Shown here piece after piece: positions 1,326 to 1,706 of a DNA stretch of 64,000 bases; the first letter of the stretch is position 1; the number at the start of each line of letters is the position of its first letter. The position numbers and the translations under genes were made by a program. The notes beneath the pieces were generated by a model. That model did no database searches. It saw only the letters and a program-made list of their open reading frames with translations, and was not told the origin of the DNA. This DNA comes from Thermoproteota archaeon (lineage in GTDB: Archaea; Korarchaeota; Korarchaeia; Korarchaeales; JAOZGB01), in the NCBI GenBank assembly GCA_037917685.1, contig JAVCBU010000006.1, positions 1 to 64,000 on the forward strand. Reading direction: 5' to 3'.

Positions 1326-1428
1326 GGGCCCGTGGCGCAACCAGGGAGCGCGACGGCTTTGCAATCATAGACTGAAAAGCCGTAGGTTGCGGGTTCAAAT
1401 CCCGCCGTGCCTAAGCGCGGAAGGTCCA
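1326..1428 (+). tRNA. tRNA-Ala(TGC) with two introns: 37/38 (1364-1377) and acceptor stem 67/68 (1408-1422)
   Basis: Cloverleaf; splicing both introns gives acceptor GGGCCCG/CGGGTCC+A73 with G3:U70; both introns form BHB-type motifs. Confidence 0.9.
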
Positions 1429-1576
1429 CTCCCCCATATTTCCATTTCTGTGAGGGCTAACTATCCTTATCCTTAGATCTATGTTGAACGTTCTCTTTCT
1501 ATGGCTGATAGCAGCTTATGATATAGTATATAGCATAGAAATAGTTGTCTTAAGGGTATAAGAGAAAGAGTAAAAG

Positions 1577-1688
1577 GGCCGGGAGCGGGATTTGAACCCG
1601 CCTCGAGGGCTTTCCGCCGGGCGGCCACAGGCTTCTGGCTTTGTCCCCAGGCTAACCAGGCTACCCCGTCGGGCTTTGTATCCCGGCC
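1577..1688 (-). tRNA. tRNA-His(GTG) with encoded G-1 and three introns: 8/9 (1668-1679), 29/30 (1633-1644), 37/38 (1612-1624)
   Basis: Acceptor GCCGGGA/TCCCGGC+C73; after splicing, D-stem GGGT/GCCT, anticodon stem GGGGC/GCCCT and loop CT-GTG-GA; each intron forms a BHB. Confidence 0.88.
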
Positions 1689-1706
1689 GCCCTCCCGGCA
1701 TGGTAG

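Follow-up and report, generated by a model that had tools for sequence, protein, structure and literature searches.

Why would a tRNA gene carry, only a few bases ahead of its 5′ end, an exact second copy of its own 5′ acceptor strand, and how might this copy matter to an intron of the same gene that borrows that strand for splicing? The question is raised by a tRNA-His gene on the minus strand of the window, i.e. the whole analysed stretch of 64,000 nucleotides at the start of contig JAVCBU010000006.1 of an uncultured korarchaeal organism. What we regard as firm is the three-intron tRNA-His gene itself, its 8/9 intron borrowing the acceptor strand, and a lineage-specific G-rich insertion that repeats this strand and supplies G-1. 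As to function, we tentatively propose that the leader copy acts as a decoy for the 3′ acceptor strand during splicing, a plausible, unproven reading that draws on predicted folds.

A tRNA-His gene with three mini-introns

The gene closes a tightly spaced cluster of tRNA genes in the order Met-Val-Gly-His on the minus strand, upstream of a 16S rRNA gene whose 5′ part occupies 1091-1 of the same strand (Rfam). The features needed for the argument are the following.

1955-1867/8, minus strand: tRNA-Met(CAU) (ARAGORN, Rfam)
1856-1784/5, minus strand: tRNA-Val(GAC) (ARAGORN, Rfam)
1779-1706/7, minus strand: tRNA-Gly(GCC), directly upstream of tRNA-His (ARAGORN; Rfam, 65.3 bits)
1689-1706, minus strand: Gly-to-His spacer of 18 nt, the real 5′ leader (read from the sequence)
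1693-1699, minus strand: GCCGGGA, an exact duplicate of the 5′ acceptor strand, at the place where the relatives' tRNA-His starts
1688-1692, minus strand: pentamer GGGCG separating the two copies and ending in the encoded G-1 (G1688)
1577-1688, minus strand: tRNA-His(GUG) from G-1 to C73, with three introns, last gene of the cluster (ARAGORN after splicing by coordinate)
1688, 1687-1681 and 1680, minus strand: G-1, acceptor nt 1-7 (GCCGGGA) and U8
1668-1679, minus strand: intron 8/9, 12 nt, ACAAAGCCCGAC; CCCG at 1673-1670 is the partner of acceptor nt 3-6 (1685-1682)
1667-1645, minus strand: D arm and start of the anticodon stem
1633-1644, minus strand: intron 29/30, 12 nt, ACAAAGCCAGAA; its CCAG pairs with CUGG (1650-1647)
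1632-1625, minus strand: nt 30-37, including GUG
1619-1626, minus strand: GGCCGCCC, i.e. G36 G37 and the first six bases of intron 37/38, complement of 1692-1685
1612-1624, minus strand: intron 37/38, 13 nt; GCGG at 1617-1614 is the partner of CUGU (1630-1627)
1611-1577, minus strand: nt 38-73, followed by CUUUU
1578-1584, minus strand: 3′ acceptor strand UCCCGGC, contested by the two GCCGGGA copies
1572-1575, minus strand: U-run right behind C73-C74, where similarity to the related contig L067 ends

Unspliced, the gene is missed by ARAGORN in both intron modes and by Rfam at its gathering score. Once 1679-1668, 1644-1633 and 1624-1612 are removed by coordinate, ARAGORN calls a canonical tRNA-His(gtg) of 75 bases with a complete cloverleaf and a GUG anticodon. 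No second tRNA-His gene was found in the 1.81-Mb, 95%-complete genome. Being invisible to both programs, the gene would lead automatic annotation to score this genome, and others with such genes, as lacking tRNA-His. Its G+C content is 72%, compared with 44.8% for the genome. Open reading frames of 41-79 aa that overlap the cluster lie inside the tRNA genes and were dismissed as mechanical.

All three introns share one plan, in which the exon bases -6 to -3 from the 5′ splice site pair with the intron bases L-5 to L-2, so that both cuts fall two bases behind a helix strand. The exon/intron helices are CGGG/CCCG (8/9), CUGG/CCAG (29/30) and CUGU/GCGG (37/38), and each intron thus has the relaxed bulge-helix-bulge form (hBH/HBh′/BHL; a 4-bp helix with splice sites 2 nt behind). 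With flanking helices of 0-2 bp, these motifs are relaxed rather than strict: the bulge-helix-bulge scan found no strict hBHBh′ motif, which would show two opposed 3-nt bulges around a 4-bp helix and a further helix at either end, as 37/38 has its 4-bp helix with h = 2 and h′ = 1, and the 8/9 and 29/30 pairs fall below the scan's threshold of one flanking helix of at least 2 bp.

Introns 8/9 and 29/30 are paralogues, each made of ACAAAG, a guide tetramer and two further bases, and they differ chiefly in the tetramer (CCCG vs CCAG). If the exon bases upstream of each are included, the pair makes up a direct repeat of 19 nt with 79% identity (1669-1687 and 1634-1652), which looks, from its sequence, like intron copying inside tRNA-His between two GCC.GGG contexts. 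A scan of the whole genome for mini-introns of the ACAAAG type gave 32 matches, and the only two that lie in a tRNA are those of tRNA-His. Intron 8/9 is furthermore the only one in the genome to invade an acceptor strand. A length of 12 nt is frequent among the introns here. Many of the genome's tRNA genes measure 83-148 nt (contigs C1, C2, C6, C14 and C22) and carry short inserts in the D arm, the anticodon stem or the variable region; automated intron stripping followed by ARAGORN over 28 genes was too permissive to serve for intron statistics.

Such an arrangement is reminiscent of the multi-intron tRNAs of Thermoproteales, which have relaxed motifs (hBH/HBh′/BHL) and broad-specificity endonucleases, and archaeal multi-intron tRNAs are described with three introns at most and with sister introns at different positions (PMC4090602 and PMC4033280, in their accessible parts). 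Common to both are several short non-canonical introns, a 4-bp exon-intron helix for each splice site, near-identical sister introns (here the ACAAAG-type pair 8/9 and 29/30) and a gene that tRNA finders miss. In contrast, the present host lies outside Thermoproteales, one of its introns uses the 5′ acceptor strand as exon helix, and the leader holds an extra copy of that strand. The locus is therefore of the known multi-intron kind, and the leader copy with its link to an acceptor-invading intron is a new twist. The accessible parts of these two reviews do not mention a leader copy of an acceptor strand, which does not imply that leader decoys are absent from print.

The sole splicing endonuclease of the genome is a protein of 371 aa in which the N-terminal and the catalytic domain each occur twice (contig C6, ~68800-69915; L115, 658-1773), and cleavage of the tRNA-His introns is a candidate activity of this enzyme. 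The two-unit splicing endonuclease has been linked to Korarchaeota with non-canonical introns (accessible parts of PMC4090602 and PMC4033280). The enzyme here is of the two-unit type, yet the genome has many non-canonical mini-introns.

The G-rich block and the origin of G-1

In the preliminary description the transcript began with a 12-nt leader, which the gene context does not bear out. As tRNA-Gly(GCC) ends at A1707, the spacer to G-1 (1688) measures 18 nt, and it is this Gly-His spacer that forms the leader. A/T runs of at least six bases occur at -38 to -19 in 30 of the genome's 44 tRNA genes and are absent from that interval in all nine genes directly behind another tRNA, tRNA-His included. 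The single promoter-like A/T box of the cluster lies upstream of tRNA-Met and is conserved in L067; the U-run at 1572-1575 is the likely end of the cluster transcript. Within tRNA-Gly, 1720-1713 (T stem and acceptor) holds UCCCGGCC, which equals the 3′ acceptor strand of tRNA-His plus C73, so both GCCGGGA copies could also pair with the 3′ part of tRNA-Gly in a polycistronic precursor.

The two sequence matches that had first drawn attention to the leader are real. GCCGGGA is duplicated exactly on the minus strand (1699-1693 and 1687-1681; 7 nt, 100% identity, spacing 12 in the repeat finder), and GGGCGGCC (1692-1685) is a perfect 8-nt complement of GGCCGCCC (1626-1619), likewise at 100% in the repeat finder. 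The upstream copy opens a G-rich block of 12 nt (1699-1688), whose first seven bases repeat the 5′ acceptor strand and whose last base is the encoded G-1. G or C occupies 11 of the 12 positions of this block and 13 of the 18 in the whole spacer, other tRNA spacers being AT-rich. The exact copy is more than chance. Among 82 candidates in all, tRNA-His is alone of the GC-rich tRNA-like ones in having an upstream acceptor copy of at least 6/7, and the two further candidates flagged are AT-rich and not tRNAs. An assembly artefact is ruled out, since the block is also present in the JGI contig L067 and in a Logan contig covering 1573-1822 with no indel.

Where did the block come from? A pattern search over 40 genomes of the class, this one included, found the arrangement of block and copy in this genome only (1/40), and neither the 8/9 intron nor an adjacent acceptor copy in any of the other 39. 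At nine distinct loci of genus g2, an intron-less tRNA-His without adjacent copy follows 7-14 nt behind tRNA-Gly, with T at -1 in six loci, A in two and G in one. The tRNA-His genes of g4 have an upstream region of their own, and G at -1 in all five loci. Introns of tRNA-His elsewhere in the class lie at 37/38 (g5) and in the T-loop (g7). BLAST alignments of tRNA-Gly from ten relatives extend through the spacer into the upstream copy, up to window position 1694 (query spans 181/182-267 in eight genomes, 141-267 and 203-267 in two more), so that by position this copy corresponds to the 5′ end of the ancestral gene, and the 12 nt have been inserted. The bases 1706-1700 (CUACCAU) are similar to the relatives' spacer, and the G-rich lineage-specific part begins at 1699. 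Judged from these alignments, the block is a lineage-specific insertion or duplication, which contributed G-1 with its final base. That nt 1-12 were duplicated in tandem was considered and rejected, as the 10 identities in 12 positions include just three of the five outside the heptamer and are not significant; an integration-site scar was rejected because the copies are only 5 nt apart.

Two observations on the relatives may be added. CCA is not encoded at the window gene, where CUUUU follows; in the relatives (L039, L046 and other g2 and g4 loci) CCA stands behind C73 and looks encoded. Furthermore, GCCGGGA occurs 19 nt upstream of intron-less g4-type tRNA-His genes (L037, L046, L106, L107), in a GC-rich upstream region; this is the second instance of a tRNA-His leader with an acceptor-like heptamer. 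Since the g4 loci L048, L049 and L052 lack an exact copy, it is probably a chance occurrence in GC-rich DNA.

The same tRNA-His gene recurs in L067, a metagenome contig from a related species (86.1% identity over 4431 nt, 97.6% over the 16S part), with 12 of 12 bases of the block identical. Only three substitutions separate the two sequences in 1706-1577, one each in the AT part of the spacer (1703), the 3′ bulge of intron 8/9 (1668) and the loop of intron 29/30 (1641). They spare all three exon-intron helices, and immediately past the U-run the contig becomes unalignable. Logan contigs of two more runs (X3, X9) carry the L067-type variant over tRNA-His; X10 and X12 have no cover there. The locus is missing from G001, a 66%-complete genome of the same genus, whose match proved to be tRNA-Cys. 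A metagenome pattern scan returned three stretches, of which L067 is the relevant one, L066 and L068 matching by chance and outside tRNA genes; of 42 stretches from genome contigs, 39 are bacterial or unrelated, L071 (Nitrososphaerales) is not tRNA-like, and L106 and L107 are the g4-type genes already described.

The leader had been expected to accompany the 8/9 intron in relatives and to covary with it. The first part stands, as block and intron co-occur in both lineages that have the intron (2/2), but these two lineages are of one evolutionary origin, and covariation with the one related species is nil, none of the three substitutions in L067 falling in the leader or its pairing partners. 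The other spacers of the cluster are well conserved too (3 changes in ~34 nt against L067), so the 12/12 conservation of the block is not significant against that rate.

These data allow a plainer reading, in which the block is the scar, neutral or nearly so, of a short duplication at the gene's 5′ end: the gene would have gained a new 5′ end with an encoded G-1, and the copy left behind in the spacer would simply go with the leader when RNase P cuts and play no part in splicing. The position of the upstream copy at the ancestral 5′ end, the agreement of 1699-1688 with spliced nt 1-12 in 10 of 12 bases and a conservation in L067 no better than that of neighbouring spacers all agree with it. 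Nevertheless, we consider a mere scar rather unlikely, for a block with 11 of 12 bases G or C has stayed unchanged in an AT-rich genome (44.8% G+C) beside a freely diverging downstream region, and it co-occurs with the genome's only acceptor-invading intron.

The insertion also bears on how the tRNA acquires G-1, which may be genome-encoded and kept by RNase P or else added by Thg1 (PMC3061083, PMC10100707 and PMC9508852, in their accessible parts). The encoded G-1 (G1688) faces the discriminator C73 (C1577), and 1688-1681 and 1584-1577 form an 8-nt perfect complement. Both an RNase P RNA (144 bits) and Thg1 (an open frame of 268 aa) are encoded, and with Thg1 present an encoded G-1 is not a strict requirement. 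Of 41 genomes, 34 have Thg1, this one and 20 of 21 g2 genomes among them, but only one of five g4 genomes does; all five g4 loci have G at -1, and eight of the nine distinct g2 loci T or A. The distribution of encoded G-1 across the class looks complementary to that of Thg1. The present gene resembles the encoded-G-1 systems in its G-1 opposite C73 and in the presence of both RNase P RNA and Thg1, but differs from them in apparently owing its G-1 to the 12-nt insertion; in most g2 relatives, -1 is T or A and Thg1 is present.

Could the insertion itself be a fourth mini-intron? If it lay at 7/8, the upstream copy would be exon, the 5′ end would fall at 1699 with U at -1, 1692-1681 would be a 12-nt intron and Thg1 would add G-1. 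The 1+5+4+2 layout would then be that of 8/9 and 29/30, with a perfect 4-bp helix CCGG(1698-1695)/CCGG(1686-1683) and a length common among the introns of this genome, and its removal likewise yields a canonical tRNA-His in ARAGORN. U at -1 would match most g2 relatives, the enzyme is at hand, and the Gly-His spacer would shrink to 7 nt, AT-rich like the others. But the CCGG helix follows automatically from a palindrome in a direct repeat and is not independent evidence, and RNAfold predicts it at P 0.00. Moreover, the final splicing step would have to open the acceptor stem without a decoy, two introns would stand one base apart with only U8 between them, and the total of four would exceed the known maximum of three (accessible part of PMC4033280); G1688 opposite C73 suits ordinary RNase P processing instead. 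We regard this intron as unlikely.

Predicted competing folds of the precursor

The proposal of a decoy strand starts from a conflict within the gene. Intron 8/9 would be presentable to the endonuclease only if acceptor nt 3-6 pair with its CCCG, and for this the acceptor stem of 7-8 bp must be open. The block would have arisen by a short duplication of the gene's 5′ end, and in the precursor the copy would occupy the C-rich 3′ acceptor strand, keeping it engaged at zero net base-pair cost and leaving nt 3-6 free. After loss of 8/9 and one more intron, the native 8-bp stem (G-1:C73 plus pairs 1-7) would win, and RNase P would then remove the leader and leave G-1 in place.

RNAfold predicts much of this exchange. 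With the spacer present, the leader copy takes the 3′ acceptor strand at a mean P of 0.93 (37 °C) and 0.90 (80 °C), and the real 5′ strand is left at 0.00-0.03, compared with 1.0 in the absence of the leader. At 37 °C, three of the four pairs of the 8/9 helix (nt 3-6:CCCG) reach P 0.84 with the leader and 0.00 without. In the minimum-energy fold at this temperature, a run of 18 bases is shared out among three partners: 1699-1693 take the 3′ acceptor strand, 1692-1685 the 37/38 junction and 1684-1682 intron 8/9. The copy is predicted to hold the 3′ strand as long as the 8/9 intron is present (P 0.86-0.94) and also when it alone is removed (0.74-0.88), and the native acceptor stem returns at 0.87-0.99 after removal of 8/9 and another intron. 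Attaching tRNA-Gly leaves the result unchanged.

Controls temper these figures. Shuffled 12-mers displace the real acceptor strand as well, in 164 of 200 cases at 37 °C and 168 of 200 at 70 °C (~82%), and random AT-rich 12-mers do so in 30 and 12 of 200, respectively; the predicted displacement thus appears mostly an effect of composition. As stable as the native leader, or more so, are 21 of the 200 shuffles, which suits a neutral scar, and the native energy lies 1.4 SD below the shuffle mean. Against such a scar, if RNA thermodynamics hold, the block must compete with the real strand and is unlikely to be free of effect. Intron 37/38 is surely real, and still its helix is absent from every prediction (P 0.00), which makes the RNAfold output a weak guide to what the endonuclease sees. 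Of the earlier idea that the copy frees nt 3-6 for the 8/9 motif, the predicted strand swap and the gain of the 8/9 helix at 37 °C stand, but about 82% of shuffles displace the real strand as well, and at 70-85 °C this helix remains at P 0.08 or less even with the leader.

A decoy nonetheless fits the co-occurrence of block and intron and the conservation of the block, and would make sense mechanistically. We put it forward tentatively, because the block has one evolutionary origin and the folding predictions are largely driven by composition. A fuller version, in which the pre-tRNA would carry its own chaperone, is possible but doubtful: the duplicate strand would expose the 8/9 intron, excision would flip the fold and only then license RNase P cleavage, and the duplication may have preceded colonisation of the acceptor stem by a copy of the 29/30 intron.

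The second pairing, GGGCGGCC with GGCCGCCC, was thought to mask the 37/38 splice site. On this account both parts form a switch, the copy holding the 3′ strand and the 8-bp helix being selected to mask 37/38, which would put 8/9 first in splicing and hold back 5′ processing. The helix is indeed predicted in the full precursor, at P 0.91-1.00 (37 °C), 0.73-0.77 (70 °C) and 0.31-0.37 (85 °C); it holds the copy in place after removal of 8/9 alone, and both of its partners are unaltered in L067. However, the segment 1692-1685 includes G-1 and nt 1-3 of tRNA-His itself, and these four of its eight bases lie opposite a GGCC palindrome. A perfect helix of at least 8 bp with the downstream precursor arises for 4.9% of all 1024 pentamers placed at 1692-1688 and for 5 of the 32 made of G and C only (~16%), so the match is weakly unusual against this null (about 5-16%). 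The leader has, moreover, at least four other complementary partners of 8-11 nt (repeat finder). The 8-bp match is therefore probably a by-product of a G/C-rich, CCGG-palindromic sequence and not a second designed switch, and its nearness to chance again agrees with a scar. In addition, the segment overlaps C3 (1685), which the 8/9 helix also requires, and with the 8-bp pairing in place the first pair of that helix drops to P 0.08. Removal of 8/9 alone gives no release in the model, leaving the proposed order without an obvious exit, and covariation is lacking. Masking of 37/38 by the leader thus finds no backing here, and we hold the complete two-part switch to be quite improbable.

The decoy reading assigns the leader's removal to RNase P. 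Alternatively, the leader could pair with the trailer, GAGG (1694-1691) with C73-U76 (1577-1574) beside the acceptor stem, so that G1690-C1689-G1688 form a 3-nt bulge and the endonuclease, not RNase P, cuts between C-2 and G-1. This was the best match of the bulge-helix-bulge scan, with a 7-bp flanking helix and a cut placed exactly at 1689|1688, and the four trailer bases are conserved in L067. But a pairing of leader -7 to -4 with trailer 73-76 is shared by 3 of 39 tRNA genes in this genome, which is the chance level, the outer helix has just 1 bp, the transcript probably ends in the U-run and an RNase P RNA is encoded, all of which makes this motif a very improbable one.

Likeness to known RNA systems

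The preliminary description compared the leader with those of split tRNAs. As in Nanoarchaeum equitans (accessible parts of PMC4090602 and PMC4033280), a sequence outside the mature tRNA pairs at the 37/38 junction. Unlike there, where a leader pairs with the trailer of a partner transcript to make up the motif at the junction, one transcript is involved rather than two, and the pairing covers the bulge of the 5′ splice site (G36 G37 | C) and does not add a helix next to it; the scan found no bulge-helix-bulge motif with the 1692-1685/1626-1619 helix as flank. The leader pairing is therefore unlike that of split tRNAs.

Attenuators and riboswitches work by mutually exclusive helices and a competitor strand. 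Here, too, two identical strands vie for one partner, and the predicted winner shifts when another part of the RNA is removed. The trigger, in contrast, would be the excision of introns and not a ligand or a ribosome.

If the leader copy indeed serves as a decoy, it would show how a mini-intron can settle in the most stable helix of a hyperthermophile-type tRNA, and how a leader sequence can order splicing and end-processing without proteins. Short duplications at gene ends could, by the same token, pave the way for intron gain.

Finally, another tRNA lies between the cluster and the 16S gene on the opposite strand (1326-1413, plus strand; Rfam, 52 bits). ARAGORN assigns it no isotype when run without intron mode and calls it Cys(GCA) with a 12-nt intron when run with it.
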